A stretch of 64,000 nucleotides of DNA. Source: an uncultured Candidatus Saccharibacteria bacterium. GTDB taxonomy: Bacteria > Patescibacteriota > Minisyncoccia > Phycocordibacterales > SIBU01. Below are positions 30,466-54,695 of this stretch, piece after piece. The DNA is taken from assembly GCA_964430335.1 (NCBI GenBank), contig CAYSEN010000001.1, positions 1,653-65,652 of the forward strand, written 5' to 3'. A program made the position numbers and the translations under genes. The first letter of the stretch is position 1. Every line of letters begins with the position of its first letter. The notes beneath the pieces are model-generated. The model was not told the DNA's origin. It saw nothing but the letters and a program-made list of their open reading frames with translations, and ran no database searches.

Positions 30466-30954
30466 ATGCCTTTAGATAACACGGTTGAAATCATAAAGAA
30501 TATTCTAGGTTTAATGGGTTTAAGGTTTGATTCGGTGGAGAAGGTTGAAGATTCGAAATCGAATTATTTTAAGTATTTAATAAAAACAGAAGAATCGGGA
30601 GTATTGATAGGTCCAAACGGAGCGAATCTAGATGCTTTAAATTACTTAGTACGAAAAATTGTTAGTAAGCAAAATGGCGACGAAACCTCAGCTAAGTTCT
30701 CTATTGATGTGAATGGATATCACGATAAAGCCCTTGAGTCCTTGAAGACTAAGGCAAAAATAATGAGCGACAGAGCCAAATCTTTTAAAATTGATGTAGA
30801 ACTAGACCCTATGTCGTCTTACGAGAGAATGATCGTTCACTCACACCTCGAAGGTGTTCCAGAAATTAAAACCGAATCAATCGGTGAAGGTTCTAGTAGA
30901 AGAGTGGTAATAAAATATATCGGAGCTGTCTCGAATCCAGAGAAATTTATTTAA
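30466..30954 (+). CDS. jag: Jag/KhpB-like RNA-binding protein (KH + R3H)
   Basis: R3H region SSYERMIVHSHLEG...RRVVIK. Position after yidC. Confidence 0.75.
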   Translation: MPLDNTVEIIKNILGLMGLRFDSVEKVEDSKSNYFKYLIKTEESGVLIGPNGANLDALNYLVRKIVSKQNGDETSAKFSIDVNGYHDKALESLKTKAKIMSDRAKSFKIDVELDPMSSYERMIVHSHLEGVPEIKTESIGEGSSRRVVIKYIGAVSNPEKFI

Positions 30955-32192
30955 TTTGATCCGAGTCTAAGGCTCCAGATATGATAATCAATTTTGTTGG
31001 TTATCATTAGGTAATCTTCTTTAGGGCTAAGCATGAGGTTCATTCCGTCTATATCTTTCTTAGCGTAGTCTTTCAATCTCAATAGTAATTCCCCTGATCC
31101 GGTATCCGTATTTATTTTCCATATTTCATCTGAAAACAAAACTTGTCCTTTATACCAAGAGTCCGGGTACAAACCTTGCGGAATATATGATGGAACACTG
31201 CAATAGATAATTTCTTGGTTATTCTTTGACCAGACACATTTTTCTGGGAATGTAGAAACTGGCGTGTCGGTTACCTTCCCTGTTTTGAAGGAATAGATCT
31301 TAAAATTTATTCCACCTGATGTGCTTTCCGAATAAACTGCGCGCTCGCCTTTCAAATCAGTTTTAGTGGTCAGTCCATTTATGTTAGATATCGCCTTTGT
31401 TAATTGGCCGTTTTTAGCATTTAGCATAAACATTACCCCACCGGCGCCTGCAGATGGTTTCGATGTTATTGTGATAATGTTTGAGCTAGGCCAATCAACT
31501 AGCCACTCCGTAAGTGGTGAATCAAAAATTTGTGTCCTTTTAGCGTTATCAAAATCTGCCACAATTCCGTTACTGCCAACCGAACTCTGGAGTAAATAAA
31601 AGATTTTATCTTTGTCTGGGTTGATTGTGATTGATTTGATATTTTCCGCCATAAAATTACCACCCAAAGCACCGTCTGGATGATCAGAGTTTTTGTCCTG
31701 TATGTAGGCGTTGTATGACTTTATGTTATCGCTATCATCCTCCGCGTATCTTATTATTATTTTCTTCCCTGTTTTGTCCCAAATCGCTTCTTCGATTTTT
31801 GGAATGGTCGTGTTGGTCACTCGATCCTCGGCGTCATTTTGGGGACTAACATTGTATACATTACCTGTCCCTTTTTCTATAAAGCTAACAATAATATTTG
31901 ACGAACTCGCCGTGATTGTCGCTCCTGCAATCGGTCTGGTTGAGAGTTCTTTTAAAACAGGGATAAACGCGTTTCCTGTCGGTGTTTCGCTCTGGCTGGG
32001 TGTGCTAGTACCGATGTTTGTTTCTGGGCTGGGATTCTCACCTCCTGGGAAGGGGTTTTCGATTTTAGGGTTTTGGTTTTGGTTTGAATCTACCTTATTG
32101 TTATTTTTTGTATAAAAATAGAAAACAAGCAGGCCTCCTGAAACCAGAAGCAAAACCAAAATAATTATGATGATAGCGGTTTTTTTAGACAT
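30951..32192 (-). CDS. membrane-anchored hypothetical protein, beta-propeller-like body (last gene of T4SS-like operon)
   Basis: N-terminal TM helix, a low-complexity linker, then repetitive beta-rich sequence. Stop overlaps the jag stop by 4 nt. Confidence 0.55.
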   Translation of the reverse strand: MSKKTAIIIIILVLLLVSGGLLVFYFYTKNNNKVDSNQNQNPKIENPFPGGENPSPETNIGTSTPSQSETPTGNAFIPVLKELSTRPIAGATITASSSNIIVSFIEKGTGNVYNVSPQNDAEDRVTNTTIPKIEEAIWDKTGKKIIIRYAEDDSDNIKSYNAYIQDKNSDHPDGALGGNFMAENIKSITINPDKDKIFYLLQSSVGSNGIVADFDNAKRTQIFDSPLTEWLVDWPSSNIITITSKPSAGAGGVMFMLNAKNGQLTKAISNINGLTTKTDLKGERAVYSESTSGGINFKIYSFKTGKVTDTPVSTFPEKCVWSKNNQEIIYCSVPSYIPQGLYPDSWYKGQVLFSDEIWKINTDTGSGELLLRLKDYAKKDIDGMNLMLSPKEDYLMITNKIDYHIWSLRLGSN

Positions 32193-33287
32193 TTAATTAT
32201 TTGGCCAATTTCTGCAACTAAGTAGAATATGACTCTTGCCAGATGTCTGACCTGTTTGATCCGCACAAGCCTTTTTAATAATTTCGATTGTTTCATCGGC
32301 TTTTTTTCTTATTGCCTTTGCTAGCTCTGGGTCACTATACTGATTATTTGCCCTACTTATTGCGGCGACAGCTTCATTGTCTACCGTTCTCATCATCTCG
32401 TTGGCAATCTTAGAGTTCCCTTTGTTTATATCGTTGAAGGCTATGAACGGAGCGGTAATATTTAAATTTTGAAATTTATCTAACTCCAATTTTTTAGCAG
32501 CGGGCTCGTCATTGAACCTAAGCATGTCTTTTATTTCGTTGTTAAAACTACCAATCATTAATTTTTGATAGCCTGACGCATTTTGAGCACTATCAGCAGA
32601 CAGGTCATTTACCGTCTGATTAACAGCAAGTCTCCTATTCATTTCTATTGCTTTTTGTGATTCCATTTGCAACGCGTCTTTTTCCAGTTTATCAGCTGCG
32701 TCCCTCATGGCCACATAAGATTCTGGACTGGTTGCCTGATCCATTTGAGACCGGATCTGATTAGCCGTGGCCTTCTTTTCATCGGCGGTTTTTGTTACGT
32801 CAGCAACTTCTTGTCGCAATTTAGTATAAAGATTATCGAGGGTTTGAAGATCTGTCGGAGCCAGAATTTCTTTACCAGCCTTTGCCTGCTTCCAGAATAG
32901 AAAATTCATACTCACGAGCGTTGGGTCAATGGTATACAAAATAATGTAGGAAGTAAGAGCAAGTATAAGCCCTCCAATAGCTCGCTCTATTCTCGCCTTC
33001 CCTTCCTCTTTTCCTGTAATAGCGTCGGTCGATAGGTATTCAAAACCGCCAAGAACTATCATTAAGAATGCCAAAATACCTGCTAAAGCAATCCCGACTT
33101 TAAATGAACCAATTAAATAAACAGAAAGGTTGGTAGCACATGGTGGAGTGGCACAGTTGGGCGTCGTGCCTGGGATAGGCGCAAGTGGTACATAGTCAGC
33201 TGCCGAGAGTGTTAAAACTGGTAAAAGAAAAAAACTTAGGATTAGCAGAGTTTTAAATAGGCTGTTTTTTATTTTTTTTAATCGCAT
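32193..33287 (-). CDS. TrbC/VirB2-like T4SS pilin candidate with long C-terminal extension
   Basis: Signal peptide, then two hydrophobic helices (GIALAGILAFLMIVLGGF; AIGGLILALTSYIILYTI) in a pilin-like arrangement, then a ~230-aa helical tail. Confidence 0.5.
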   Translation of the reverse strand: MRLKKIKNSLFKTLLILSFFLLPVLTLSAADYVPLAPIPGTTPNCATPPCATNLSVYLIGSFKVGIALAGILAFLMIVLGGFEYLSTDAITGKEEGKARIERAIGGLILALTSYIILYTIDPTLVSMNFLFWKQAKAGKEILAPTDLQTLDNLYTKLRQEVADVTKTADEKKATANQIRSQMDQATSPESYVAMRDAADKLEKDALQMESQKAIEMNRRLAVNQTVNDLSADSAQNASGYQKLMIGSFNNEIKDMLRFNDEPAAKKLELDKFQNLNITAPFIAFNDINKGNSKIANEMMRTVDNEAVAAISRANNQYSDPELAKAIRKKADETIEIIKKACADQTGQTSGKSHILLSCRNWPNN

Positions 33288-33292
33288 TTTAT

Positions 33293-34306
33293 TTAAAATT
33301 GAACCTCACTTGTTTTTCCAAAACTCAAAGAGATGTCATTTGCTGCCATTTGGAACATCTTATCTGGGTTTGAAATTTGAAGGCTTACAAAGGATACACC
33401 TTTTGTGTCTTTGTCTTGCCTAAAAATTAAAGTGCTTTTGTTACCAGAATTTACAATGTTGCCATTTTGTCTCCATTCATATTTCAAATTATTACCTTCC
33501 CTCTCTTTTGCGCCAATAAAATATGGAATACCGACAATGCTTATTTCAGATTGACTAAGTACTGTATTGCTACTTAAGGCTCTGTTGTACTGTATTCCAT
33601 ATATAGGACTGTTTTCATAAAACAAGAGTTGAGGCAGTTGAGGTGCTAGGGAAATTGTTTTTGAAGCGTTGTATTTTTTATCTAACGTGGACACATCTAC
33701 TGATATTTTAACTGTGTTTGGCAACGTTCCGCCAGTGTAAATCATGTAATTTTTACCTAAACCTGAGGCTTGGGAAACTGCATCTCCGTCTATTGACCAC
33801 GTGTATACTAGATTTTTAGAAGATTCCTGAACGCCTCCGATAACAATGTTTGGCACTGCGACAATCTTAACACTCCCCTGCATTGGATAGATGGCCTTAC
33901 CTTTATAGAAAGGAGGTGTATAGGATTGTGCCTCCCAAATCAAATCCACATTTGCCGGGTTAATGTTTAGAGTTTGTTGGTATGATTGCCCATTCTTGTC
34001 TTTTATTAAAACAAGAATGTTTGTACTGCTACCAATGGGGCCAGTTTTAAACATTAATGTTTTGTCACCAGTGGCCTCCTTTTCTAGTTGACCGTTAATG
34101 AACCAAGATATTTCAGTTCGGTTTAAATCAATTGCATAGCTCTCCAAATTAACTTTAACGAATTGGTTTGGTCCGGGATAAGTAGGATCAGTGGTTATCA
34201 GTATGTTGTTTGAACTTCCAGAACCGCCTAATACTTGAAGGTCGGCAAATGATACTAAAGGTAATAAAAATAAAGCTATGAGAAATGTGATTGAAACAGG
34301 TTTCAT
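33293..34306 (-). CDS. secreted hypothetical protein
   Basis: Signal peptide MKPVSITFLIALFLLPLVSFA; beta-rich. In-operon. Confidence 0.55.
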   Translation of the reverse strand: MKPVSITFLIALFLLPLVSFADLQVLGGSGSSNNILITTDPTYPGPNQFVKVNLESYAIDLNRTEISWFINGQLEKEATGDKTLMFKTGPIGSSTNILVLIKDKNGQSYQQTLNINPANVDLIWEAQSYTPPFYKGKAIYPMQGSVKIVAVPNIVIGGVQESSKNLVYTWSIDGDAVSQASGLGKNYMIYTGGTLPNTVKISVDVSTLDKKYNASKTISLAPQLPQLLFYENSPIYGIQYNRALSSNTVLSQSEISIVGIPYFIGAKEREGNNLKYEWRQNGNIVNSGNKSTLIFRQDKDTKGVSFVSLQISNPDKMFQMAANDISLSFGKTSEVQF

Positions 34307-34333
34307 GTACTAATATTTTATCACAGAAAAAAA

Positions 34334-35236
34334 TTATTCAGTTAAGCTGTTTTCCTCATCTTCTTTAGCCTTTTTTCTTTGACCGTAAGAGAGAGATAAA
34401 TCTAGCAAATTACTTCTAAACTTTAAGGCGTCTTTGCTTTTTTGCCTCTCCTCGTTGTTTGCGCTCCCCCTTAGGTCTAGGCTGTTAGGATCTGAAGCGT
34501 CATCTTCCGCCCCTTGGTCAGAATTATTGTTACTATAACTTCTGCTTTCACGACTGGTCTGCCTTCTCGAGGTTTTTTGTTTCGGTGTGCTGTTTCTGTT
34601 GTTTTGATTTTCCTCCCCGATTGCTCCTTCATTGTTGTCTCCCAATTCACCACCATCTGAGTCTCCGTTTTCTTGATCATCATCCCCCTCCTCATCTTCG
34701 TCATCTAATTCCGGAGGAACGGATTCGTTTTCTGCCACCTCACCCGCTAGAGAGGCTCCTTCGGCACCAGCACCTACTTCTGCCCCTACCCCAGAGGCCA
34801 CAGCTCCTTCAGCTGCCAAAGAAGCACCTCCTGTTTCAGGAGCCAAAGCCACAGCTCCGGCAGCCACCGCGACTTTTGCAATTTTTGCTAATTTCTTTTC
34901 AGCTTCTACGGAAGCGTACATTACAATCCCGTCTAAAAACCAAAATGGCATCGCGTCTACGTCAGGAATCTCTTCTAGTAAAAACCCTAAACTGACAGTT
35001 AGTATTTTAGGTGCGTCAAAATTTACTCCTCTTAAATATAGATATGTCGGCCAAGCAAGTCCTGTAGCGAAGCTAATAAAACGATTCAAGAGTGTCCCTA
35101 CAGTTGCTATGAAAGGAATTCCAATCCAATCCAACACAAATTGGGCAATATCAATAATGCCGAGAATGGATATAACCATTCCCCACTCTAGTTTGCTGAT
35201 GTTTGGGCCACTTTTTTTAGCTTTTTTCTCGGCCAT
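34334..35236 (-). CDS. membrane protein with Ala/Gly-rich then highly acidic disordered tail
   Basis: Three to four TM helices in the first 120 aa. The tail contains DDEDEEGDDDQENGDSDGGE. Confidence 0.55.
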   Translation of the reverse strand: MAEKKAKKSGPNISKLEWGMVISILGIIDIAQFVLDWIGIPFIATVGTLLNRFISFATGLAWPTYLYLRGVNFDAPKILTVSLGFLLEEIPDVDAMPFWFLDGIVMYASVEAEKKLAKIAKVAVAAGAVALAPETGGASLAAEGAVASGVGAEVGAGAEGASLAGEVAENESVPPELDDEDEEGDDDQENGDSDGGELGDNNEGAIGEENQNNRNSTPKQKTSRRQTSRESRSYSNNNSDQGAEDDASDPNSLDLRGSANNEERQKSKDALKFRSNLLDLSLSYGQRKKAKEDEENSLTE

Positions 35237-35248
35237 TTGCTAAGGGTT

Positions 35249-37066
35249 TTACTTCTGGTCGCTGCTTTCCAAATCTTGTTTTGCCTGCTTGATCGCAAGT
35301 AGTTGTGACGGGTCTGAGGTGATGATCTGGTCTTCAGTGTACGAAGCGATCACTTTTATAGCGACGTGCTTTAGTCCCACGAAGAAAATTCCCTCACCTA
35401 CGTCCGATTCGAGTAGCAGATATTTTTCTTCATCAGTAAGACTAAAAGTTTTTTGAATTTTATCAATAGACGAGGGTGATTGTTTTAGCAACATTTGAAT
35501 AGAAGAGTTCGTGATGATAGGTAGTCCGTATGGAGATTTTAGGAAGTCGTCCACGTCTTGAGTAATGGTTGAAAGACCAAGGTAATATTTTCTTCCTCTT
35601 TTTGCCAGTCCAAGTAGGAATGAAGCCGTATCTTCTGATTTCATCATCCACCAAGCCTCGTCGATAACCAAAAGTCTTTTCTTAAGGTTTTTACGAATGG
35701 CGTTCCAGATGTAGTGCATGACTATATACATCGCCACCGGCTTTAGTTCATCTTCCATGTCTCTAAGAGAAAATACGATAAATTTACTATCAATATCGAT
35801 GTTTGAAGGTCGGTTAATAAAACCAGCCCAAGTTCCTCTTGTGTATTTACTTAGTCTTTGGACCAAAGAGTCCGCTCCTTCCATTCCAGCCAATACCAAT
35901 TCAAAATCAGACAGAAGTGGTGGCTCTACATTTCTAAAATCTGAATCAGGTGAAATGTCTTTGAGTGCGTACGTTTCGCTGATTGCGCGGTCTATAAGAG
36001 CGTCTTCCTCTGGTGTTAGGCCCCCTAACATGATTCTGAAAAGGCCAACAAGGTTAATTATGTTAGAGCGTAAAACATCTGCTGGTGACTCGTCTTCTCT
36101 TGGAATAGGCAAATCAAATGGGTTTATATGATGACTTGAGTTTAGTGAAATCGTAAAGTACTTCCCTCCCGTAGCCTCTGCCATATATTCGTATTCTCTT
36201 TCAGGATCAATCACGATAACTTCTGTATCAAACATCAAAGTTCTTAAAATTTCCAATTTGGTATTGTAACTTTTACCAGAACCAGATTTCGCAAAAGTAA
36301 TTGAGTTGTAGTTTTCCAAACTAAATCGATCAAAAAGCACAAGCGAAGAATTATGTCTGTTGATTCCGTACAAAATACCTTTGTCAGAAGTTAGGTCGAA
36401 AGAAGTGAATGGAAAAAGCGAAGAAAGAGGTTCAGAATTTAACTTCGAATGAATCATGAGTTCATCCTTAGCCATTGGCATAACACTTCGGAAACCTTGT
36501 TCTTGTTGGAAGAGTGCAGGCTTAATGTAAATCAATTTCGATTCCAAAAGTGATTTTATCTCCGACTCAATTTTGTCGAGCTCTGCATCAGAGTCTGCGT
36601 AAATAGACATGTACAGACCAACATCAAATAATTTTTCCTGAGCTTGCATCAAATTGTCACGCAACCTCTCAAGGTCTTGATATGCAGTATCTAGCATCGG
36701 GTCTCTGACCAGCCCTTTTTTCTCCCTAGTGCTGATTTGGCTTTGAACCTCGGCCACTTTTTTCTGAAATTGTCTCAAGACAGTGGCTGTGTCTATCGGG
36801 TGAATCATTATGGAAATATCAAAAACCTTGTCTAGGTTTATGATAGGAGAAAACCACCCAGCTGAAAGAAATCTAGGATATGAAATTACGAAAAAAGTTC
36901 TTACGATTTTATCACCCAAGTTTAGCGCTCTCGGACTAACCTTTAGAGCTGATGGTGCTATAACATCCTTAAGCTCTAATACACCTGCCTCGTAAATTTC
37001 TTGTGGAAGAATCGAGGCGATGTCTGGAGTCTTATCTTTGCTTTTTAGAAAATCAAATAATCCCAT
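35249..37066 (-). CDS. virB4: VirB4/TrbE-family T4SS ATPase (ATPase domain)
   Basis: Walker A FAKSGSGKSY, VIDPEREY, Walker B LLVIDEAWWMM. The ATG at 37066 lies 4 nt after the upstream gene's stop. Confidence 0.85.
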   Translation of the reverse strand: MGLFDFLKSKDKTPDIASILPQEIYEAGVLELKDVIAPSALKVSPRALNLGDKIVRTFFVISYPRFLSAGWFSPIINLDKVFDISIMIHPIDTATVLRQFQKKVAEVQSQISTREKKGLVRDPMLDTAYQDLERLRDNLMQAQEKLFDVGLYMSIYADSDAELDKIESEIKSLLESKLIYIKPALFQQEQGFRSVMPMAKDELMIHSKLNSEPLSSLFPFTSFDLTSDKGILYGINRHNSSLVLFDRFSLENYNSITFAKSGSGKSYNTKLEILRTLMFDTEVIVIDPEREYEYMAEATGGKYFTISLNSSHHINPFDLPIPREDESPADVLRSNIINLVGLFRIMLGGLTPEEDALIDRAISETYALKDISPDSDFRNVEPPLLSDFELVLAGMEGADSLVQRLSKYTRGTWAGFINRPSNIDIDSKFIVFSLRDMEDELKPVAMYIVMHYIWNAIRKNLKKRLLVIDEAWWMMKSEDTASFLLGLAKRGRKYYLGLSTITQDVDDFLKSPYGLPIITNSSIQMLLKQSPSSIDKIQKTFSLTDEEKYLLLESDVGEGIFFVGLKHVAIKVIASYTEDQIITSDPSQLLAIKQAKQDLESSDQK

Positions 37067-37070
37067 ATTT

Positions 37071-37721
37071 TTATTTAACTTGAATTGGCTTTTCGGTGTC
37101 ACCCGGATTAAATATTTTGTAGAAAAGTTCCACCACCTCTTCTGTTCCGAGCAAAACTGCTCTAATACCACATCTCATAAGTCCTTGTTCTACAACGGAA
37201 ATTCTCTGTAGCAGTTGGCTTCGGCTCTCCTCAAATGCATCTTGTTTTCTCTGCGATTTTTCAACCGCTTCTTTTCTGGTCAAGAATTTTCCTGCTAATT
37301 CTATCACTCCCCCTTTGGCTTGGAGAGGTGCTGGAGCGTAGGGTATGACAACAAAAAAGGTCTTAGTCATAATGCTCGTGCTTTCTGTAAAATTTTTGAT
37401 GAATTCTATGTACTCTCTTGTTTGAGTTTTCATCAGATCAGTCGTCTGGTTTTTGTAGGTCTCTTCTAGGAGTGCAATATATGGTCTGATATCCAATTTT
37501 CTCGATTCGATAAATAGTTGCACGGAAAAATCTAGAGAATTTAGAAAGTTCTGGAATTGCAATATGATAGCGTTTTGGTTGTCCTCAGACTTTAGTGCAA
37601 AGTTTAAAGACGAAGTCATGACTATTCCACGAAACGAGCCGTCTCTAAGCACGACAATACCGTCCCGAACCTCTTTGATCGGTACGAATTCTTGAGTCGC
37701 CTTAGAACTTTCTGTCGCCAT
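37071..37721 (-). CDS. VirB4 N-terminal-domain-like protein (split from ATPase domain)
   Basis: FVPIKEVRDGIVVLRDGSFRGIVMTSSLNFALKSEDNQNAII resembles the N-terminal region of VirB4/TrbE proteins. 216 aa + 605 aa matches full-length VirB4 size. Confidence 0.6.
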   Translation of the reverse strand: MATESSKATQEFVPIKEVRDGIVVLRDGSFRGIVMTSSLNFALKSEDNQNAIILQFQNFLNSLDFSVQLFIESRKLDIRPYIALLEETYKNQTTDLMKTQTREYIEFIKNFTESTSIMTKTFFVVIPYAPAPLQAKGGVIELAGKFLTRKEAVEKSQRKQDAFEESRSQLLQRISVVEQGLMRCGIRAVLLGTEEVVELFYKIFNPGDTEKPIQVK

Positions 37722-37771
37722 GCCTTGTATTATAACTTAGATTGCGATTGTTATTAACGATTTTTCTGTGC

Positions 37772-38200
37772 CTATCTATTTTCCATAGTCTCTTTTACTC
37801 CTGGATTCTGAGTGTCATTTATATCAAGGCTCCATGTGAGATCCTTGAGTTTGCTATCAGATAACTTTGGAACATATAGAGGTGACTGTGACTCCACTTC
37901 TTCTTTGTGCTGAGGTTTCTTCTCAGTTTTCTTCCAAATATAGAGCTTGTCAGTGAAAAAATATTTAAATGCTGCTTCAACCACAAAGACGAAAGGACGA
38001 TTGTTAACCTTGTATAGCGCTAAAGCAAGGGAAAATGCTATTACTGGAGCCATTAAAAATATGGCGATATAAAAGTTTAGGTAATGGTATATTATAAATG
38101 AAAGACCTGCCCCACCAGCAAGATAGACAAATTGTTTGACCGTAAAAGGGCCGAAAATTTTGTCTTCAATTTCTATGAATTGTGGAACTTGGAATCTCAT
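37772..38200 (-). CDS. PrgI-family / VirB3-like small T4SS membrane protein
   Basis: MRFQVPQFIEIEDKIFGPFTVKQF followed by two TM helices. Position directly upstream of virB4. Confidence 0.65.
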   Translation of the reverse strand: MRFQVPQFIEIEDKIFGPFTVKQFVYLAGGAGLSFIIYHYLNFYIAIFLMAPVIAFSLALALYKVNNRPFVFVVEAAFKYFFTDKLYIWKKTEKKPQHKEEVESQSPLYVPKLSDSKLKDLTWSLDINDTQNPGVKETMENR

Positions 38201-38208
38201 TTGTTTTT

Positions 38209-40038
38209 TTAAGCTATAGGTTCTCTGTAAGGGTCAGAACTATATTTTGCCTCAGTCTTCTTTGATTGAACAGGAGCTCCTAGTTTCTGTTCAATGATAT
38301 TTTTTGCAGGCATTGTTGGTATTGGTCTTTGACCTATCACTATTTTTGGAATTTCTCTAGGTGTTTCTTTGATTGGGTTTTGTGATGGAGTGCTGGAAAT
38401 ATTAGGCGTAGAGGCTTTAGGTGCTGGTGCGATTACTATTTTCGGCATTGGTTCTGGAGCCTTTGGTTTTGGTGGCGCAGGAGGTTGCGGTAATCTGTCC
38501 TCTACTGGTTTAGGTGGTGCCACAGGAGGCCTTGGTGGTGTCGGAATCTGAGAAACTGGTTTCGGAGGCATTGGGGGAACAGGAGGGGTCGCACTACTTA
38601 CAGGCTTTTGAGGGGGCACAAACTTCGGTGGCTGTGGAGGAACAGGTTTTGCTGGTTCTGCGGGTCTGATATTTTGAGAAATTTTAACTTTTTCTGGCTC
38701 AGGCTTAAACCAATCCTGCGCTGTGAATTTTTCGGTATCTAGAGAAGTAGATGAATTTGGATTTTCGATATCTTTTAAAATTGCTTCTCTGTTAGGCAGG
38801 ACTTCCTCGCTCTTTTTTATAGGTTCTGCTTCGTTTGGTTGTATTGGTGAGAGTCTCGTTTTTAGGGTGTTGCTTGTGTATGAAGAAGGCACTTCCCCGT
38901 TTACTTGTTTTAACGCCTCACGTATTTTAAGGAAAACTTCGTTATTAATTTCTTGGGCAAGAGATTTGGTTTTTTCTTCATTAATTCCGAGTCTTCTTGA
39001 TAGTCTTGGTAAGAATTGAGATGTGGGCGTCATTCCTAGAATAACCATGCCTGTCTCTTCCCCGAGTTCCCCGAGCTTGTCTACATGTAGAGCATATTTT
39101 CTACCGATGTCCAAAACTTTTTTTGCGGAATCAACAGATCTCAATGCGTTTTTTAATGTGTAAGGAAGTTTGTCGAATCTGGCCTGTAGCTCCTTTTCGC
39201 TCAACTTGCTCGAGAGCATTTTCAGGAATGATCCGAGAGGATTTTCGGACATTCTTTCACTATTCATTTCAACAATAGGAGGTCGGCTAAAATTACTTTG
39301 CGCACCGCTAGAAATCTCTGAGCTATTTGCCGTTGAGGTTGGTGTGTAGACTTTTGTGGTGGAGAATTCTGATAGTGGCTGTGGAGGAACAGGGGCTAAT
39401 TTGGATGGCTGGAAATTCTCGAAACCAAAATCCTTTGTGTTACTAATGTATGAGGGTTTGATTTCAGCTTGTTCTTTTGGTTTCTCCGGAATAATTTTTT
39501 TAATTGGTACAGATCTTTCCTGGCTCTGAGCGACTGATTCAGCGGAATCAGGTTCTGATTGCGAATCGATTTTGTCTTGCTCATTAAATTCGATTCCGGA
39601 ATCGTTTATCGGCATTCTTGGGGCGCTAATTTCGGCTTCTTGTGTTTCAGTATTTTCCTGTACAGGATTTCCCTCTTCTTGTGCTTGTGTTTCGGCCGGA
39701 GTTTCGTTGATTGTTAAAGGAGAAATGCCGAGAGCTGGCAGTATTTTGGTAAAAATTTTTTCGTTGATCTCGCTTACAATGGTCGCAACTTTTTCTCTAT
39801 TATCCTCGTCTAATTTTTCTAGTAACTTTTCCTCAAATTCAGTAACCGGTATTTCCTTTTTTGCGATCTTTTCTATTACCTCGCAAGTCTCGCCTATTTC
39901 GGCGTAGGTTATTTCTATTTGATTTAAAATTTCCTCGATCCGTTCAATAAGGGCCGTATCTGGGAAAACAGAATTAAACTCCGGGTTTAACCTTTTAATT
40001 GTTTGAAGTAAATTGTTTTCTTGTGAAATGAATTTCAT
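38209..40038 (-). CDS. proline-rich hypothetical protein
   Basis: 609 aa with the long Pro-rich tract PPVPPMPPKPVSQIPTPPRPPVAPPKPV...PPAPPKPKAPEP. No TM seen. Confidence 0.55.
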   Translation of the reverse strand: MKFISQENNLLQTIKRLNPEFNSVFPDTALIERIEEILNQIEITYAEIGETCEVIEKIAKKEIPVTEFEEKLLEKLDEDNREKVATIVSEINEKIFTKILPALGISPLTINETPAETQAQEEGNPVQENTETQEAEISAPRMPINDSGIEFNEQDKIDSQSEPDSAESVAQSQERSVPIKKIIPEKPKEQAEIKPSYISNTKDFGFENFQPSKLAPVPPQPLSEFSTTKVYTPTSTANSSEISSGAQSNFSRPPIVEMNSERMSENPLGSFLKMLSSKLSEKELQARFDKLPYTLKNALRSVDSAKKVLDIGRKYALHVDKLGELGEETGMVILGMTPTSQFLPRLSRRLGINEEKTKSLAQEINNEVFLKIREALKQVNGEVPSSYTSNTLKTRLSPIQPNEAEPIKKSEEVLPNREAILKDIENPNSSTSLDTEKFTAQDWFKPEPEKVKISQNIRPAEPAKPVPPQPPKFVPPQKPVSSATPPVPPMPPKPVSQIPTPPRPPVAPPKPVEDRLPQPPAPPKPKAPEPMPKIVIAPAPKASTPNISSTPSQNPIKETPREIPKIVIGQRPIPTMPAKNIIEQKLGAPVQSKKTEAKYSSDPYREPIA

Positions 40039-40050
40039 AAATCAATTTTT

Positions 40051-43000
40051 CTAAGCCTTTCGCCATTGATCGCTAGCAAAAGTAATTTGCTTACTCGGTG
40101 ATTCAGCCTGATTTTCCAGTTCACTGTACACACTTCTGAGTTCAGGGCTCAAAGTTTCGATCGGTCTGGTTATTGTTTTACTTCTAGGATCTAGGAATAA
40201 ATATTTTAACAATCTTCTGTTTTCATCGGTAACTAATCCATAACCATCTTTCTCTGCTTTGTATGATTTCAATAAACTTTCGAATAGAGATGTAATATCT
40301 TCGCTGTCCTTGTCCTTAAATTGTTGGAAAATACCTTCATCGATCATTGAGTGCACTATCTCGCTATTTCTTGTTCGGCTTCTAGCGCCAGCTAATTCGT
40401 TCGCAGCTCTTCCTGACTTCCAGTTTAAGGCAATACTTCTTCTTAATGTGTCTCCAAGAGTGCCTTTTGAGTAAGTTTCCATGAAAGCTGTGTTCATTGT
40501 CTTGCTTATTTCATCTGGTGTTGCACCAGGCGTTGATGTAAGTAGTGCTTGTTTAGCATCTTCTGCAGCTTTTTTGGCTGCATCAAATGCCGCTTTTCTG
40601 GTCACACTCTCTTCCATTGCTTTCTTTTTTACTTCCTCGATTTCTTCCTTGGTTGCGGTAGGTTTTGAAGCCTTTAGGGCAGCCACAGCCTTTTCAGCAT
40701 CTCTTTCCCCATCACTTTTTATGTAGTTAGGGTCATTTGTTACTACGATCTTATCCATGTCAGAATCTTTATCGTAACTTAATCGGTCTCTTAGGTTAAA
40801 GGCGAAGTTTTCATTTGTTCGTATTTCCTTGTTTGTTAACCCCCATCTCATTGTGTGAACTAGCTCTTTTATGTCAAACATGTTTGGAGCTACAAATGAC
40901 GCCAGTTCGTATTCAGGTAGAGTCATCTTGTTTCTAGCCCAAGCTTTAAGATTACCTGGAAGGGTAGGCTTTGATTCAGGGTTTTCAATCTTCTCACCTG
41001 TGTTAAGTACTGCATACCTCACTCCGTTGATTGTTTGAATTGCACTTTCATCTACATCGCCGTTCTCTGGGTTTACCTGAACTTTACCGTCCAAAATGGC
41101 TTTTCGTACCGCTGCCTTCTTAGCGTCGTAATCATCAACCTGTTTTTGATAAACTGCGAATTGTTGAATTTCGTCTTTCCATCTTGAACCAATCATTTCT
41201 TGTTTTTCTTCCATTGTCCAGTGATCATTGGCAAGCACAGCCTTTAGTTGTTTCAGGGTGGCGTACCTTGAGAATTCTTCAATAGTGTGTTCATCCAGAT
41301 CGGCAAAATCCTCCGGTGCAATCCTTGTTACCGCTGAAGACAGTGCAGACTCGGCTTTCTTAGTGGCATCGTCGGCCAACTTGATTCTAGCCTGATCTTT
41401 ACTTGCTCTAGCAGCTTCCATTTCTTCCCTAGCTTTATCCAGCTGAGTTAGTCCGGATTTAGCAAAATCAATTTGCCCAAGTGCAAATCTTCGATTTTTT
41501 AGTTTCTCACTATCTTCATAATATTCTTCAACTGACTCTTCCCCACCAAATTTTGCATGGGCTCCAAAAAGGGATCCACCGGTAGTCTTTTTTCTTATAA
41601 AACTTCCCAATTCAGTAGCACCAAAACCTGTACGTTTGAATTTTTTATCCAATTCGTTGATATCGATATTTTTTTGTACCTTTTCCGCTCCGCTCTTAAA
41701 TTTGTCACCAAAATTTTTAAGTCCTTCTCTACCCGTCCATTTTCCAAGTGTACTAGCGGCTCCACCGACAACATTTCCAACTGCGGATACATATGTGCCT
41801 CTAACTACAGTTCTACCAACAAACGCTCTGGCCTCCTTCCCTACCTCATCTGCAAACTCAACTCCAGTCGCCTCAAGTTTGTGAGCCACCATGATTGAGC
41901 CTAGCATCAATCCAATTAGAAGAATGAAGTTAAATACAAATGCTAGTCCTGCCGTTGTGCCGTTGTCTGCACCTCCAGTACCAAAGATTAGTTTAGCGGC
42001 TGAAACGGCGGTAGAGGCCGCTGAGTACGCAGTGTCTTGTCGGTTTACGGTCATAACACCAAACTTAAATGCATCAGTTTGAATGGTTAAAACTACCACA
42101 TAGCAAAGCGCCATATATATCGGTGCGAATATAGATTGGCTGATGAGTTTTTCCTTCCATTCCTCCGCGTAGTGTTCGGTAGAAGGAAGCACAAATGATA
42201 GAAAACCTAGAGGCGAAAGAATCATTACCATCATAAGTACTACCACTCTTATTATGAAAAGTATGGCTGCTACTATGAAAACGTACGCGGCGGTAATCAT
42301 CAAAATAATGCCGAATATTCCAATTAAAATAATTTTGCCAAAGTTTATTACTCCTCCCGCGATTTGGCTGTTAAGATCAGACTGAATGCCTGCCTGTTGC
42401 AATGCTTGGCCCCCTGCGGTTTGCGGTTCGTAGACTGTTTGTATCTTGAGACCTTCCATGAACGCTCCTGAAAAACTTGAGGTCGGAGTAGCGTAATTAC
42501 TTACAAAGGACTGTATTTCATCCCCGTTTGGTTTAGGATTTGGTGTCACAATCAGGTTATAGAAATGGAGAGCGACAATGTTTGACCCGTCAATAACAGC
42601 CTTTGTAATGAAAAGGCTGAAGTTCATGAGTAATGCCACGATAACGAGATTTACGATAATTTCCTTTGTCTTCCCTGTCGCTAGACCGAGAATGGTTCCT
42701 ATAGCTGTCCAAAGCAAAATGAAAATAAATAAAATATTGGCCAAATCTCTGAAGATTCTCCAACCAATGTCTACTATTGGCACATGCTTCATAAGGTCGG
42801 CCATGTTTAAGGTGTAGTAGATCGACATGTCTAAGATCTTTCCGGCTAGCCACAAAAACCATGAGAAAATCCACATGATTATGTAGACAATACTTGCTGC
42901 GCAAGCGTCCAGGTTTAAGGAAGGAATACCAAAATTGCCACTAAGACATCCGATGGTGGTTGGAGGATTTTTACCGTTTGCACCTTGGTTGTCGGCACTG

Positions 43001-43188
43001 GCCGCTTTTTGACCCGTGGATTGAGGTGTTGTCTGCGCCCCGTTAGGACTCGGTGCCGCAGCTCCTGTAACTACCGAGTTAGGGTTAAGTTCTTGAACCT
43101 GAGCGAAAGCCGTCTCAACACCCAGCGGGTTTAAAAAACCACTTAACAGAGTTGCTAGTATGAATGTTGATAATAAAATTTTTTTCAT
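40051..43188 (-). CDS. VirB6/TrbL-like polytopic membrane protein with ~550-aa charged C-terminal domain
   Basis: Signal peptide, at least six hydrophobic helices between residues ~95 and 450, then a Lys/Glu/Ala-rich tail. Confidence 0.55.
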   Translation of the reverse strand: MKKILLSTFILATLLSGFLNPLGVETAFAQVQELNPNSVVTGAAAPSPNGAQTTPQSTGQKAASADNQGANGKNPPTTIGCLSGNFGIPSLNLDACAASIVYIIMWIFSWFLWLAGKILDMSIYYTLNMADLMKHVPIVDIGWRIFRDLANILFIFILLWTAIGTILGLATGKTKEIIVNLVIVALLMNFSLFITKAVIDGSNIVALHFYNLIVTPNPKPNGDEIQSFVSNYATPTSSFSGAFMEGLKIQTVYEPQTAGGQALQQAGIQSDLNSQIAGGVINFGKIILIGIFGIILMITAAYVFIVAAILFIIRVVVLMMVMILSPLGFLSFVLPSTEHYAEEWKEKLISQSIFAPIYMALCYVVVLTIQTDAFKFGVMTVNRQDTAYSAASTAVSAAKLIFGTGGADNGTTAGLAFVFNFILLIGLMLGSIMVAHKLEATGVEFADEVGKEARAFVGRTVVRGTYVSAVGNVVGGAASTLGKWTGREGLKNFGDKFKSGAEKVQKNIDINELDKKFKRTGFGATELGSFIRKKTTGGSLFGAHAKFGGEESVEEYYEDSEKLKNRRFALGQIDFAKSGLTQLDKAREEMEAARASKDQARIKLADDATKKAESALSSAVTRIAPEDFADLDEHTIEEFSRYATLKQLKAVLANDHWTMEEKQEMIGSRWKDEIQQFAVYQKQVDDYDAKKAAVRKAILDGKVQVNPENGDVDESAIQTINGVRYAVLNTGEKIENPESKPTLPGNLKAWARNKMTLPEYELASFVAPNMFDIKELVHTMRWGLTNKEIRTNENFAFNLRDRLSYDKDSDMDKIVVTNDPNYIKSDGERDAEKAVAALKASKPTATKEEIEEVKKKAMEESVTRKAAFDAAKKAAEDAKQALLTSTPGATPDEISKTMNTAFMETYSKGTLGDTLRRSIALNWKSGRAANELAGARSRTRNSEIVHSMIDEGIFQQFKDKDSEDITSLFESLLKSYKAEKDGYGLVTDENRRLLKYLFLDPRSKTITRPIETLSPELRSVYSELENQAESPSKQITFASDQWRKA

Positions 43189-43194
43189 GATTCC

Positions 43195-45564
43195 CTATTG
43201 AACGTTGATTGTGCTTGTTTGTGTCGCAATCACACTCTCCTTTGATGTATTTGTGGCCGGTTTATACACTTCTGTAATCAATTGATACTTATATCCTAAC
43301 ACCGCACTGCTTTTAATGTGTCCGATCTGATCGATTTGTAACGAATTAGCCGAGGTTAGTGTTAGGGATTTGTTGTAAGTAAATGTTGTTTGTGACATAT
43401 CATCTGCAAAAAATACGAATTCTGTTTTTTTGTTTTCTGGTTTTGTGGTTTCGTTTATCTGGAAGGAATCAAATAGCGTTGAAAGTGAAAATGATGTTCC
43501 GTCCTGGCTTTTTAGGCTAATTCTTACTCTTAATCCCGGAATGTCTTGGTTGTTATCAAGTACCAAGGCGTTGCTAAATGAATCACCAGGGTTTTTGTTG
43601 ATGTTGTTGATCTGTGCCATTGCAAACGAAGTGTCTAATGGGGATGAGCTGTCTACCGGTCCACCACCTGTTGTGTTTGATGAGGTGTTAGTAGAAGGTT
43701 TGTAAAGCTCTACTTTGTAAATGGCAATTTCGTTTGGATTGGAAACCACGATAGCGTTCGCTGTTATCGGCTGATTTAGTGTGATAGTAAAGTCGTCTAC
43801 AGATCCAGAAAATGTGAAGTTGGAGTTAGCACCGCTGTTACTTGATGGGTAGTGGAAAACCACGTAACTCATAATGTCATTTTTCGAAACAGGAATACCT
43901 GTTTTGTCTGCTGGCATATTTGCTAGGTAGACTTCGTTACCAGTACCGTGACCAGGATATGATCGGACCTTAATAATTTGAACTTTATCAGATTGATTTA
44001 GAGCTGCAGACCACCAGTGTGGAGCAGGTCCACCGCTGGTCCAAGAAAAACTGTAACCCCCTACTGCGTTCTGAGGTCCGTAGGTTCTGCCATCGCCATC
44101 GATTCCTACATAAGACTGATTTAGCTTTGCGCTGTTTAGGTTAATACTTCTGTCCGGAGGTGCTTGTGTTGCTGGTTTTGTGACGACTGGTGCAGTCACT
44201 GAATTGTTGCCGTCAATAAATTCGTTTGTACCGTTTGCAATAGATGTGGTTTTGTCGATGTTCTTACAATAAAGTACGACGTTGTTGTAATTGGCTACAG
44301 TCCACTTTGTGGTGGTGTTGTCTGCGCCAATTTTTACTGTAGGCGTGTATGATGCCGTTTTGCTAACTACTCCGTTGATCTTTACCAATACTGGTGAAGT
44401 AAGGGTCGGTTGAGTGTTGGTCGGTGTATCAACTCCGTAAATGTTTTTATTAAATTCATTACAGAACTGAAGTCCTGTAGGTCCATTGGCACCTGTTGGT
44501 CCAATACCGTTTACATACAGACCGTCTGGAAGATTTTTTGCTTGGTTGTTTTCAGAAATGATTTGATCACTACTACTCTTAAGGGCCTTGTCTACTGCCG
44601 ACTGTCCTCCGTTGTCATATGATGGAGTACTTGCTCCAGCTAAGCCCCCTACTCCTCCTAAGACCTGATTTATTAGTTGTCCAACAAGCGCTCCCAATAT
44701 TGCATCAAGATCTTTTGCTAGGCCAACTCGGTGAACTTGCTCGCCAAGAGTGTTTGATAGTTGGTCTTCGATGAGTGACCCTGGCGTCGTGATCTTCCCT
44801 GTTTTTGGATCTACAGAAGAAAGAAATCCTTTACCGAAATCTAATTGTTTTGTAAGTCTAAACTGAACACCCGCAATTCTTGCGTCAACTGTGTTTACGG
44901 CTTGAAGATATGAGCCGTAAATATTATTTTGCGGAGTGACTGTTAGATTAAGCCAGTTATCCCATCCATTCTTGCCGAACACTCCTGTGGTGAAAGCTCT
45001 TTGTACGTTTTTTTGGATATCACTTAGTCTACACCCCACATACTGATAATAGTCAGGTCTCGAGTATTGAATTCCAAGGGAAATTCTTAATTGAAAATCA
45101 AAAGGACTACATACAATCGAACCGATTGGACCTAGGCCTTCAATGAAAGTTCCCGCAGCCTGATCGGCGGCGTCAGCCAAAAAACCTTGTAGGTTAGTTA
45201 CGTATAGAGGGCTTCCGCTAAAGCCGTTGTTGATCCAGTTTACGGTTTGGGCGGTGAAATTGTCGAGCAGAGATCTGGCCATGATCGTCACAAGTGGCTC
45301 GACAATACATCTCTGTATTGTAAAACCTGTAGTCTGACCTGCTGTTTCGCTGTTTGCGCTATGGTTTGCTGAGTCGTAAGTAGGCACAGCCTGTATTTGA
45401 TTGGCCACTCCTTGGGCTAACTGCTTACCTTTCGTTGCCAAAATTCCCGCCAGACAAGATGAATCGGCGTGCGCCCCATTTGGAAGAGCTGTTAGAAAAG
45501 GTCCTACTATCAAAAGTAATGTTGCGAGTATTCCGAAAGTTTTTTGTTTCAAATTATTTCTCAT
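43195..45564 (-). CDS. large secreted hypothetical protein
   Basis: 789 aa with a signal peptide (ILATLLLIVGPFLTALPNGAHA); Thr/Asn/Ser-rich, beta-rich C-terminal half. Confidence 0.55.
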   Translation of the reverse strand: MRNNLKQKTFGILATLLLIVGPFLTALPNGAHADSSCLAGILATKGKQLAQGVANQIQAVPTYDSANHSANSETAGQTTGFTIQRCIVEPLVTIMARSLLDNFTAQTVNWINNGFSGSPLYVTNLQGFLADAADQAAGTFIEGLGPIGSIVCSPFDFQLRISLGIQYSRPDYYQYVGCRLSDIQKNVQRAFTTGVFGKNGWDNWLNLTVTPQNNIYGSYLQAVNTVDARIAGVQFRLTKQLDFGKGFLSSVDPKTGKITTPGSLIEDQLSNTLGEQVHRVGLAKDLDAILGALVGQLINQVLGGVGGLAGASTPSYDNGGQSAVDKALKSSSDQIISENNQAKNLPDGLYVNGIGPTGANGPTGLQFCNEFNKNIYGVDTPTNTQPTLTSPVLVKINGVVSKTASYTPTVKIGADNTTTKWTVANYNNVVLYCKNIDKTTSIANGTNEFIDGNNSVTAPVVTKPATQAPPDRSINLNSAKLNQSYVGIDGDGRTYGPQNAVGGYSFSWTSGGPAPHWWSAALNQSDKVQIIKVRSYPGHGTGNEVYLANMPADKTGIPVSKNDIMSYVVFHYPSSNSGANSNFTFSGSVDDFTITLNQPITANAIVVSNPNEIAIYKVELYKPSTNTSSNTTGGGPVDSSSPLDTSFAMAQINNINKNPGDSFSNALVLDNNQDIPGLRVRISLKSQDGTSFSLSTLFDSFQINETTKPENKKTEFVFFADDMSQTTFTYNKSLTLTSANSLQIDQIGHIKSSAVLGYKYQLITEVYKPATNTSKESVIATQTSTINVQ

Positions 45565-45609
45565 GAAAAACTCCGTTACCCAAAAATAATTTGGATAACT
45601 TTGTGTAAA

Positions 45610-46584
45610 TTATAACTTATCAAAGAATTGGTAGCCATCCTCTCCTTTGCCGAAAACAACGTCTTTGCTAATAAAATAAGTTTTGAAGGCGGTTACTGAG
45701 TCCGGAAAATTTTTAGCACTGTCTGCGTAGCTAGCCACTCCTGGCAAAGCCTTTATCGGGTCAGTCAAAATGTATTTTAAACCGTTGATACTCCAGGCCA
45801 TGGCTTCTGTGCTATTTAGCAAAGCCAAGTGAAAAGGAACAGCACTTTTTGGCACCTTCATTGCTAATAGAGAGACCCCGATTTTTTTATAGGCGGCGAT
45901 GTTGTCGTTTAATTTTTCAAGCTCAGCAGGTTTTTTACTCTCTTCTGCCCTGTTTACTATTTCTATCTCGTATTCTAGTTTTTTAGTTGGCGGTTTTTTT
46001 AGTAGAGATGCAATAGAATTGCCATAATTTTTTATAATCTCATTTGATTCCTCTGTAATTAAATTTAAGTCTGATTCTGAGTAAGTCTTTAATTTTTGAG
46101 TATCTATTTCATTTTTGATTGCTTTGTTTAGGAATTCCTGAAAATCAGCCTCAGTTGGAGGGTTTTCAGAATTTCCCGAAGCGATTACTTTCACAAAAAG
46201 CTCTCTTGAAAATTTATCGGTGTCGGTTAGATCTTGCTCGGTTTGTGAATTGATTTTACTGCCTACGGTCTCTTGGTCCAATTTGTCATTTGGCCCTGCA
46301 ACTGTTGGGTTTCTACCACTTTTTATCTCCGCTCCATCCATAACTCCGTCACCGTCAGAATCCGGATTGTGTGAGTCGGTTTTCCATAGTTGCTCTTCCC
46401 AATCTTTAAGTCCGTCGCTGTCATTATCAATTGCCAGGAAGGTGTTGTTTGGGGTCACCTTAGGAGTTCCTGCTACATAGGATGTTTTTTGTGTAAGTTT
46501 TGTGGTTAGAAAAATTAACCCAAAGATTACTATTGCTATAGAAATTAATATTAGTTTTTGTCTCTTTGGATTCATGTTAAGCAA
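45610..46584 (-). CDS. membrane-anchored protein with thrombospondin type 3-like Ca-binding repeats (first gene of operon)
   Basis: N-terminal TM helix. DNDSDGLKDWEE and NPDSDGDGVMDGAE Asp-rich repeats. Confidence 0.55.
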   Translation of the reverse strand: MLNMNPKRQKLILISIAIVIFGLIFLTTKLTQKTSYVAGTPKVTPNNTFLAIDNDSDGLKDWEEQLWKTDSHNPDSDGDGVMDGAEIKSGRNPTVAGPNDKLDQETVGSKINSQTEQDLTDTDKFSRELFVKVIASGNSENPPTEADFQEFLNKAIKNEIDTQKLKTYSESDLNLITEESNEIIKNYGNSIASLLKKPPTKKLEYEIEIVNRAEESKKPAELEKLNDNIAAYKKIGVSLLAMKVPKSAVPFHLALLNSTEAMAWSINGLKYILTDPIKALPGVASYADSAKNFPDSVTAFKTYFISKDVVFGKGEDGYQFFDKL

Positions 46585-48466: not shown

Positions 48467-48467
48467 A

Positions 48468-50447: not shown

Positions 50448-50790
50448 GAAGCACTACTATATCATGGAGATTAAATTTGGAGTGTGAATTGCCACAAAAA
50501 AGTAAAAAATTTTGACCAAATTCTCATCCACAGGCTATCCACATTAACATTTTTATGTTGTTGACTTTTGGGTACCACAAGCTACACTTATTGGACCGCT
50601 CAGTTTTGATGATATTACCAATATATGGCTTGGTTGAGCCATTTCCAGAGAGGAAGGATGAAATAACTAAGAATATAGGCTTATTTTAGGAAACCCTCAC
50701 AAACCTTTTGAGTCATTTACCAAAATTTGGCTCAATAAGGCCATAAATTCGGCATTTAAAGGCCTTCTGTACTCAAGGCTGGTTTTTGCT

Positions 50791-51756: not shown

Positions 51757-51783
51757 AAAAACACCTCTAGGTGTTTTTTTTGT

Positions 51784-53337: not shown

Positions 53338-53355
53338 TTTATTTTAATAAAGTCT

Positions 53356-53718
53356 TTATTTCATATGAGCCACACAGGTGCTGGCTGCTGGGTTAGCTTC
53401 CAATCTCTCTTTTTCAATTGGATGATGGTCTGCTTCGCATAGTCCATAAGTCCCCTTTTCAATTTTCTCTAAAGCTTTTTTGATTTCGTTAAATCTAATT
53501 TCCAACTGCTTTAAAATCGCGGTATTTTCCTCATAAGATTCTATGCTATCAGCCACGTCATTTGAGTCAGACGCTAAGGTGTCCATTTGGTCTGGTTTTG
53601 CTTCCCAATCAGATGGGTTCGATGGATTGATTCGGCCAATAGACTCTAATTCTTTTTCAACGACTTTCAGTTCAGATTCTAATAGTGTTTTGAAATGTTT
53701 TGTATTTTCCATAAACAA
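53356..53718 (-). CDS. DksA/TraR-family zinc-finger protein (degenerate finger)
   Basis: Coiled-coil N-terminal part and C-terminal GLCEADHHPIEKERLEANPAASTCVAH. Confidence 0.55.
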   Translation of the reverse strand: MFMENTKHFKTLLESELKVVEKELESIGRINPSNPSDWEAKPDQMDTLASDSNDVADSIESYEENTAILKQLEIRFNEIKKALEKIEKGTYGLCEADHHPIEKERLEANPAASTCVAHMK

Positions 53719-54691: not shown

Positions 54692-54695
54692 GTTT

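Follow-up and report, generated by a model that had tools for sequence, protein, structure and literature searches.

A likely Paceibacteria-type, origin-proximal type IV secretion locus with a predicted two-gene VirB4 motor and six unnamed gene families

A large part of bacterial diversity belongs to the Patescibacteria, which live attached to other microbes. VirB4, the ATPase of type IV secretion systems (T4SSs), has been found in 2,417 of 3,035 Patescibacteria genomes, where it forms a clade nested in MPF-FATA; genes for TrsD, PrgI/VirB3, VirB6, and VirB2-like proteins lie near virB4, and relaxases are almost absent (Quinonero-Coronel et al. 2025, PMC12102498). In Paceibacteria, the neighbours of the locus are dnaA, dnaN, rnpA, and ksgA (PMC12102498), and a 2025 review treats the Patescibacteria systems as a recognised T4SS subgroup (PMC12857230). 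In Southlakia, transposon sequencing showed the T4SS genes and pilins to be essential for epibiotic growth, and this system has no coupling or relaxase proteins (Wang et al. 2023, PMC10633639). The Patescibacteria T4SS is the first to be shown essential for the growth of its own carrier. Here, we describe a locus of this type in a 64,000-nucleotide (nt) stretch of DNA, hereafter the window, from an assembly titled uncultured Candidatus Saccharibacteria bacterium (GCA_964430335.1, contig CAYSEN010000001.1, positions 1,653 to 65,652 of the forward strand).

Eleven co-directional open reading frames (ORFs) on the minus strand span positions 30951–46584 of the window and are named g1 to g11 in transcription order (Table 1). 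Their content and surroundings support an interpretation as a Paceibacteria origin-proximal, relaxase-free T4SS locus. Its core at the cytoplasmic membrane comprises an extended VirB6 (g3), a PrgI/VirB3 protein (g5), and a two-gene VirB4 (g6 and g7). We consider it likely that the locus is related to the monoderm (MPF-FATA) conjugation machinery, has lost the DNA-processing parts, and serves as a machine for host contact and exchange. Intergenic gaps from g1 to g11 are 45, 6, 12, 8, 50, 4, 12, 27, 5, and 0 nt, in agreement with a preliminary description of this stretch, made from the sequence alone, which had reported 11 minus-strand genes with very short gaps and a jag stop codon overlapping the last gene; the overlap with g11 is 4 nt. 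Promoter-like sites showed no excess in our scan (34 vs 36.3 expected from shuffled sequence), and terminator-like sites showed a modest one (23 vs a shuffle mean of 15.3, standard deviation 4.3), with none marking an operon boundary.

Comparisons with other genomes were based on relatives of g7 in a one-genome-per-species set, in which at least 578 of the 600 candidate stretches examined, the upper limit of the scan, encoded such a relative. The best 80 of these relatives (loci L001–L080) are 79%–92% identical to g7, and we use "full loci" for the 42 related loci with complete 10-kb flanks, which come from different species. Most of the best 80 are titled as Paceibacteria or Parcubacteria-group metagenome-assembled genomes, and many others have titles that are generic or probably wrong ("uncultured Candidatus Saccharibacteria"). 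With Paceibacteria and Parcubacteria genomes as the nearest relatives, the earlier link of such VirB4-centred clusters to the candidate phyla radiation (CPR) was confirmed.

The VirB4 call for g7 was borne out by several searches. Against the NCBIfam CD1110 VirB4 model, g7 scored 366 bits (cutoff 325) and covered model positions 185–733 of 752, and it also matched P-loop_TraG (1.1e-27) and the solved VirB4 C-terminal domain in PDB entry 4ag5 (1.6e-40). Both Walker motifs are intact, with Walker A (AKSGSGKS) at nt 36269–36292 and Walker B (LLVIDE) at nt 35657–35674, and the public annotation on the source contig is that of a VirB4 component. The identities of g7 are consistent with the Patescibacteria VirB4 clade. 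The listed ORF opens at a GTG at 37171, and an ATG at 37066, which the public gene calls also use, sits 4 nt past the g6 stop; this ATG is almost certainly the true start.

Immediately upstream, g6 had been counted among seven genes that could not be assigned, and for this gene the count did not hold. It aligns to positions 2–119 of the CD1110 VirB4 model (8.9e-8) and to positions 99–233 of the Mbov_0397 VirB4 model, which is of the Mycoplasma integrative and conjugative element (ICE) type (9.4e-12); a match to the TrsD model (1.7e-4, 21 bits) fell far under the cutoff of 200. Its precomputed Pfam family is PF26593 (TraC-like). The gene was found in 79 of 80 loci, at a median gap to VirB4 of 5 nt. 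Since g6 occupies CD1110 positions 2–119 and g7 positions 185–733, the two together make up one full-length monoderm VirB4. Direct BLASTP of g6 against g7 found no similarity, which is expected of consecutive parts of one ancestral protein rather than duplicates. By these alignments, VirB4 is encoded here as two genes, with g6 the N-terminal domain and g7 the ATPase. We also considered a 773-amino-acid (aa) protein of the VirB4 cluster (P0215) as a g6–g7 fusion and rejected it, as it consists of VirB4 and an unrelated C-terminal extension.

The PrgI assignment of g5 stood, with a match to PF12666 (PrgI) of 37.2 bits (gathering score 27) and presence in all 42 full loci. Its reported place directly upstream of VirB4 did not, because g6 intervenes and PrgI lies two genes upstream.

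The other membrane parts of the predicted apparatus were recognised mainly through their relatives. No Pfam family matched g3 itself; its homologues reach TrbL above threshold, and the best fold matches of a g3 model were TrwI/VirB6, so that the VirB6/TrbL call made earlier holds. The conserved transmembrane core of g3 covers residues ~100–480, and its 560-aa hydrophilic C-terminal extension is common only to the closest relative. Similarly, g10 alone scored 17.3 bits against the pilin family PF18895, under the gathering score of 26.6, and 38 of 41 positional orthologues matched this family (best 2.3e-9), which upholds its description as a pilin. A hidden Markov model (HMM) of the g10 family scored g10 at 127 bits and the Mbov_0395-family pilin-like genes of Pontibacillus at 37–45 bits. 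No other ORF in the window has a pilin domain, and one g10-type gene per locus, always of 270–500 aa, was present in 39 of 42 loci. Profile searches of the PDB with g1, g2, g3, and g10 returned coiled-coil noise only. As a separate observation, single g10 orthologues carry SLT, 3D, CHAP, or Peptidase_M15_4 hydrolase domains (the loci and domain order are uncertain), which suggests that the pilin hairpin could anchor a VirB1-like activity in some lineages.

No relaxase, type IV coupling protein (T4CP; VirD4/TcpA), VirB11, or lytic transglycosylase was present among 36 window ORFs scanned with Pfam, a set that takes in all ORFs outside the cluster with 190 aa or more but not several of 100–184 aa. 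The absence noted earlier within the operon thus extends to the scanned ORFs of the 64-kb window, and relaxase and coupling protein were likewise not seen at the syntenic loci of other species. With no relaxase, coupling protein, or VirB11 among the scanned ORFs, the idea of an ordinary conjugative element or ICE with its relaxase and coupling protein just beyond view is close to refuted, and we regard it as scarcely credible. VirB4, PrgI, and VirB6 are parts of the conjugation type, plasmids mostly typed as conjugative carry the nearest non-CPR VirB4 relatives, and the window contains a tyrosine recombinase (58134–59072; XerC/D type with a SAM_1 N-domain), all of which such an element would explain. 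However, the cluster is flanked by 30 kb and 17 kb of housekeeping genes, these flanks and the gene order recur in 42 of 42 full loci of different species, the recombinase is at the same syntenic place in a distant locus, the composition of the cluster matches the genome (guanine-plus-cytosine [GC] fraction 0.37–0.43, like the flanks), and VirB4 is more conserved than DnaA.

Gene order and sequence conservation describe the setting of the locus in its relatives. In 42 of 42 full loci, the order was uvrD, ksgA, (peptidoglycan-binding gene), g1 to g11, (jag), yidC, rnpA, dnaA, and dnaN, a reading that allows for individual genes missed by tblastn in some loci. Two distant loci of the g2 family on other contigs, L085 and L086, have the same arrangement, and their synteny reaches outward through KsgA, UvrD/PcrA, M23-LysM, and ComM in the same relative order. 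L085 also keeps NYN, S15, and the XerC/D-type recombinase in order (window 47699–59072), a syntenic stretch that in the window includes polynucleotide phosphorylase (54696–56867). Median identity over the same loci was 82% for VirB4, 64% for g6, 62% for DnaA (window 27711–29057), 56% for PrgI (g5) and UvrD, 51% for DnaN, 47% for KsgA, and 44% for YidC, and it was 28%–38% for the envelope parts g1, g2, g3, g9, g10, and g11. With VirB4 at 82%, DnaA at 62%, and the envelope parts at 28%–38%, the motor is under stronger constraint than the initiator of replication, and the parts exposed at the surface evolve fast. Because VirB4 is 82% identical across species, compared with 62% for DnaA, the cluster is on this comparison a core locus passed on by vertical descent, not a mobile element.

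Table 1. Genes of the predicted T4SS locus and its immediate neighbours (window coordinates)
Feature	Position	Strand	Description
g1	45610..46584	-	324 aa; N-terminal membrane anchor, TSP3-like repeats, conserved C-terminal domain (predicted)
g2	43195..45564	-	789 aa; predicted secreted, conserved N-domain and lineage-variable C-terminal half
g3	40051..43188	-	1045 aa; "extended" VirB6/TrbL-like polytopic membrane protein
g4	38209..40038	-	609 aa; predicted cytoplasmic, helical domain(s), long Pro-rich linker, C-terminal DPYREP
g5	37772..38200	-	142 aa; PrgI/VirB3-like two-helix membrane protein
g6	37071..37721	-	216 aa; TrsD/TraC-like, predicted detached VirB4 N-terminal domain
g7	35249..37066	-	605 aa; VirB4 ATPase without extreme N-terminal domain
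g8	34334..35236	-	300 aa; predicted small membrane domain (residues ~15–120), acidic low-complexity tail
g9	33293..34306	-	337 aa; predicted secreted, about three beta-rich repeats
g10	32193..33287	-	364 aa; signal peptide, VirB2-like pilin hairpin (residues ~30–125), ~240-aa variable helical extension
g11	30951..32192	-	413 aa; N-terminal membrane anchor, probable TolB-like beta-propeller
Divergent neighbour	46703..47692	+	329 aa; predicted secreted, PG_binding_1 domain
jag	30466..30954	+	Stop codon overlaps g11 stop by 4 nt

Six accessory genes, g1, g2, g4, g8, g9, and g11, belong to no Pfam or NCBIfam family. Their order around the core is fixed in 42 of 42 full loci, tblastn misses allowed for. 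Weak domain signals were read against a pooled scan of 148 orthologue sequences of g1, g4, g8, g9, and g11 from related loci. The first gene, g1, has a hydrophobic (Kyte-Doolittle) helix at residues 10–28 and a conserved C-terminal domain (residues ~110–320); its relatives were found by tblastn in 36 of 42 full loci, always as the first gene of the cluster. The thrombospondin type 3-like calcium-binding repeats proposed for it gained support, since g1 alone matched TSP3_bac at 18 bits, under the gathering score, and 12 pooled-scan sequences also matched (best 2.8e-10). A profile search with g1 found no relative in the PDB.

The g2 family combines a conserved core with variable ends. After a signal-like helix at residues 9–27, g2 has a Cys-containing, all-alpha N-domain (residues ~75–330) with the motifs WINSGFxGxPxF, NNPYG, KGFLS, and TPGSxIExQL. 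This core is conserved across 54 loci and the C-terminus is not; among orthologues, the C-terminal domains were of F5/8 type C in 6 of 41 and Ig-like in 2 of 41, and the C-terminal half of g2 itself had no assignable domain. The family is large (6,057 representatives at E<=1e-3 after clustering at 50% identity), and some homologues have a short DUF4141 match (33 bits vs a gathering score of 30). An AlphaFold2 model from a 122-sequence alignment was all-alpha and poor (predicted local distance difference test 60, predicted template modelling score 0.40), and a Foldseek search of this low-confidence model against the PDB, which bears on the idea of a VirB5-like tip (TraC/TrwJ), gave no match. 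A profile search of the PDB with the C-terminal half found nothing, and tblastn of the N-domain against plasmids found no match. On its sequence features, g2 is the best candidate for a host-binding or adhesin component.

Between VirB6 and PrgI, a g4-equivalent gene was found in 58 of 59 loci by iterative HMM search, and between VirB4 and g9, a g8-equivalent ORF was found in 57 of 62 in the same way; both were seldom caught by tblastn because of low complexity. The preliminary description had noted a long Pro-rich tract in g4 and proposed a VirB10/TonB-like spacer role. The tract is present (13% proline), but the proposed role fails because there is no membrane anchor. Having neither a transmembrane helix nor a signal peptide, g4 is predicted to be cytoplasmic, and eight orthologues read by eye had no obvious N-terminal hydrophobic segment. 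Orthologues are usually ~230 aa long and carry the motif DPYREP(I/L) within the last ~10 residues (nt 38209–38229 in the window); a C-terminal DP[YF]RE was present in 46 of 59, with one-residue variants in ~10 more. This tail looks like a docking peptide. The smaller g8 has a Kyte-Doolittle helix at residues 20–38 and consists of Asp and Glu to 17.7%.

The remaining accessory proteins may be built of beta-rich domains. After a signal-like helix at residues 3–21, g9 is conserved over its full length in 76 loci, and weak matches to PKD_3 (0.0076) and a Hoc Ig-domain (0.0072) give weak evidence for an Ig/PKD-like protein. Present in 42 of 42 full loci, g11 has a Kyte-Doolittle helix at residues 6–24. 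The 12 best of its 14 matches in a PDB profile search were TolB, all weak (best 3e-3), and three pooled-scan sequences matched the DUF5050 and DPPIV_N propellers, matches that most likely belong to g11. A TolB-like beta-propeller is therefore the probable fold that these profiles suggest.

Host contact and macromolecule exchange are the most likely function of the locus, because the locus lacks conjugation parts and a cultivated relative cannot do without its system. By analogy with the R388 and Agrobacterium structures, VirB4 docked on PrgI/VirB3 and VirB6 would extract pilin from the membrane, and the extracted pilin would form a surface filament or a conduit through the cell wall. The conserved core of g2 with its exchangeable binding domains could provide host recognition, with g1, g9, and g11 acting as envelope scaffolding. 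Such a machine would mediate contact and macromolecule exchange with the host cell rather than conjugation.

For the direction of exchange, we tentatively rank uptake of host material first, as a possible but speculative role, above effector export, which we consider unlikely, and pure adhesion, which seems unlikelier still. Uptake is favoured by the lack of a coupling protein that could feed cargo outward and of a periplasm, which a monoderm does not have, for Sec-exported cargo. This leaning fits a preprint in which a cultured Minisyncoccota parasite takes up host RNA and has tubular structures that reach the host and are possibly T4SS pili (bioRxiv 10.64898/2026.06.21.733656). Contact-dependent export of effectors toward the host cell was the first proposal for Saccharibacteria; the Southlakia system was suggested to perhaps export proteins instead (Wang et al. 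2023, PMC10633639), Bordetella Ptl and Brucella VirB are precedents for export without a T4CP (PMC12102498), and fast-evolving surface parts would fit a role in host interaction. However, these T4CP-less precedents load their substrates in the periplasm, which a monoderm is without, effector candidates or secretion signals are not known, and nothing in the operon resembled toxin or enzyme cargo in Pfam and NCBIfam scans.

Helicobacter ComB and archaeal Ced are relatives of T4SSs that work without relaxase or coupling protein. A DNA-uptake (competence) machine of this kind would account for the lack of T4CP and relaxase in the cluster, as in ComB, and would suit the syntenic comM gene 5 kb away, the weak partial match of g7 to CedB (1.3e-8, 34 bits vs a cutoff of 700), and the ABY1 class, in which the T4SS adjoins comF, recG, and radA (PMC12102498). 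We nevertheless find competence quite improbable. The CedB match covers only the shared P-loop region, ComB parts of the VirB7/9/10 type are missing, and a PilB-type ATPase is also encoded in the window. Moreover, in the passages of a review that cite Wang 2023 on Southlakia, comEC deletion abolished transformation and kept viability, the T4SS was essential, and competence depended on type IV pili (PMC12857230).

Several points weigh against reading the locus as a machine for host contact and exchange. VirB8-like (NTF2) and VirB1-like parts gave no Pfam, NCBIfam, or PDB-profile signal in the 11 genes and were not recognised in the operon, and none of the 11 genes showed similarity to PrgL or PrgK. 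Another part of the genome may encode a VirD4-like T4CP, as VirD4-like genes are present in most Patescibacteria genomes, far from virB4 (PMC12102498). The sole pilin-domain protein has a 240-aa extension, unlike the short Southlakia pilins, which may make its polymerisation questionable. The roles given to g1, g2, g4, g8, g9, and g11 are read from sequence features, filament assembly is uncertain, and the direction and nature of the cargo are conjecture. A more specific idea concerns the six Pfam-orphan genes, whose order is fixed in Paceibacteria and which the nearest Firmicute locus does not have. They could be a dedicated host-interface module that makes a motor derived from conjugation a conduit for importing host macromolecules (e.g., RNA), with g2 as the determinant of host specificity and the DPYREP-tailed g4 replacing the coupling protein as partner of VirB4/VirB6 on the inner face. 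We hold this idea of a host-interface module to be doubtful.

The surroundings of the cluster include a possible cell-wall partner. The divergent gene next to g1 encodes a peptidoglycan-binding protein, as described earlier (PG_binding_1, PF01471, 23.5 bits vs a cutoff of 23), and is at the same position in only 16 of 42 full loci; it is possibly a partner at the cell wall and not a fixed part of the cluster. An M23-LysM peptidase (50791–51756) lies 4 kb from the cluster and may be the "VirB1-like" hit near virB4 in PMC12102498. Other scanned flank genes were a mur ligase, fpg, holA, polA, pilB, ruvB, PBP1, tyrS, dnaN, and dnaA, and further ksgA, uvrD, comM, pnp, the xerC/D-type recombinase, exonuclease III, and cca; the rest were housekeeping genes or had no family. 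The PilB-type type IV pilus ATPase (9974–11650; T2SSE 9e-122 and MshEN) lies 20 kb from the T4SS, so that the genome holds both surface-filament systems, as reported for Saccharibacteria. Positions 13400–16700, between ruvB and a TrmB-like regulator, have a GC content of 45%–68%, compared with ~39% elsewhere, peaking at 65% over a 313-aa minus-strand ORF (14924–15865). Pfam found nothing in this or the four other small minus-strand ORFs of the island, which may have been acquired horizontally from a high-GC organism or may reflect a chimeric assembly.

Outside the CPR, the closest VirB4s come from Firmicutes and Actinobacteria, belong to the CD1110 family, and are 27%–37% identical to g7, which has at most 37% identity to any plasmid VirB4. 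Split-VirB4 MPF-FATA systems (pGO1 TrsD/TrsE, Mycoplasma ICE Mbov_0395–0397, and Pontibacillus) share the order of polytopic VirB6-like, PrgI-like, TrsD-like, and VirB4 genes. In Pontibacillus (NZ_CP062975, L083), the split pair is 30% identical to g6 (8e-27) and 33% identical to g7, and the g5 HMM scored the equivalent gene at 26 bits. The Pontibacillus locus differs in that an M23 hydrolase directly follows VirB4 and short pilins lie upstream, and no relatives of g1, g2, g4, g8, g9, or g11 were found in it. This locus lies at 350–361 kb of an 898-kb replicon or chromid of Pontibacillus sp. ALD_SL1, adjoins flagellar genes, and includes a 779-aa polytopic protein and two pilin-like genes, which thus occur within a monoderm MPF-FATA-type cluster. 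Its annotation lists neither a relaxase nor a T4CP up to 12 kb away, and PLSDB types the replicon as non-mobilizable; the locus may be another non-conjugative use of the core.

The accessory genes described here had no detectable similarity to the pCF10 accessory proteins (PrgD-H, PrgK-M), and all family HMMs scored <10 bits against pCF10 PrgC–PcfC, a comparison that lacks power because even PrgI and PrgH were missed. Relative to the R388 and Agrobacterium VirB systems (MPF-T), the locus is without the VirB7/9/10 outer-membrane complex, VirB11, VirD4, and VirB1, its VirB5 and VirB8 are not recognisable, and its host is a monoderm.

The T4SS of the cultivated relative Southlakia epibionticum (SEML1_0004–0019) offers a further comparison. 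Both loci are origin-proximal, have the core order VirB6-like, PrgI, a further protein (~290 aa in Southlakia), and VirB4, encode exported Ig-like proteins downstream and PF18895 pilins, and have no relaxase or T4CP in the cluster. Southlakia is set apart by a pair of VirB6-like genes, an NTF2-like (VirB8-like) protein, a lysozyme/glucosaminidase, and its six short pilins in tandem, whereas the locus described here encodes a single long pilin-domain protein and the g1/g2/g4/g8/g11 set but neither a hydrolase nor a recognisable NTF2 protein.

The published Paceibacteria arrangement of the Patescibacteria-clade T4SS matches the g1–g11 locus in parts, in position, and in having no relaxase or T4CP at the locus, and we found no difference in kind (PMC12102498). 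The type of system, where it occurs, and its place in the genome have been described before (PMC12102498; PMC10633639), so novelty is low. Our additions are descriptive, namely the fixed order of six unnamed families, the long locus pilin (270–500 aa), the DPYREP tail of g4, and the size of the g2 family with its variable lectin-like ends. The split VirB4, the long pilin-domain protein, the g2 family, and the DPYREP-tailed g4 offer targets for structural and genetic work. The analysis here leaves the published picture of the system unchanged, and the locus provides a clean, complete example of its Paceibacteria version.

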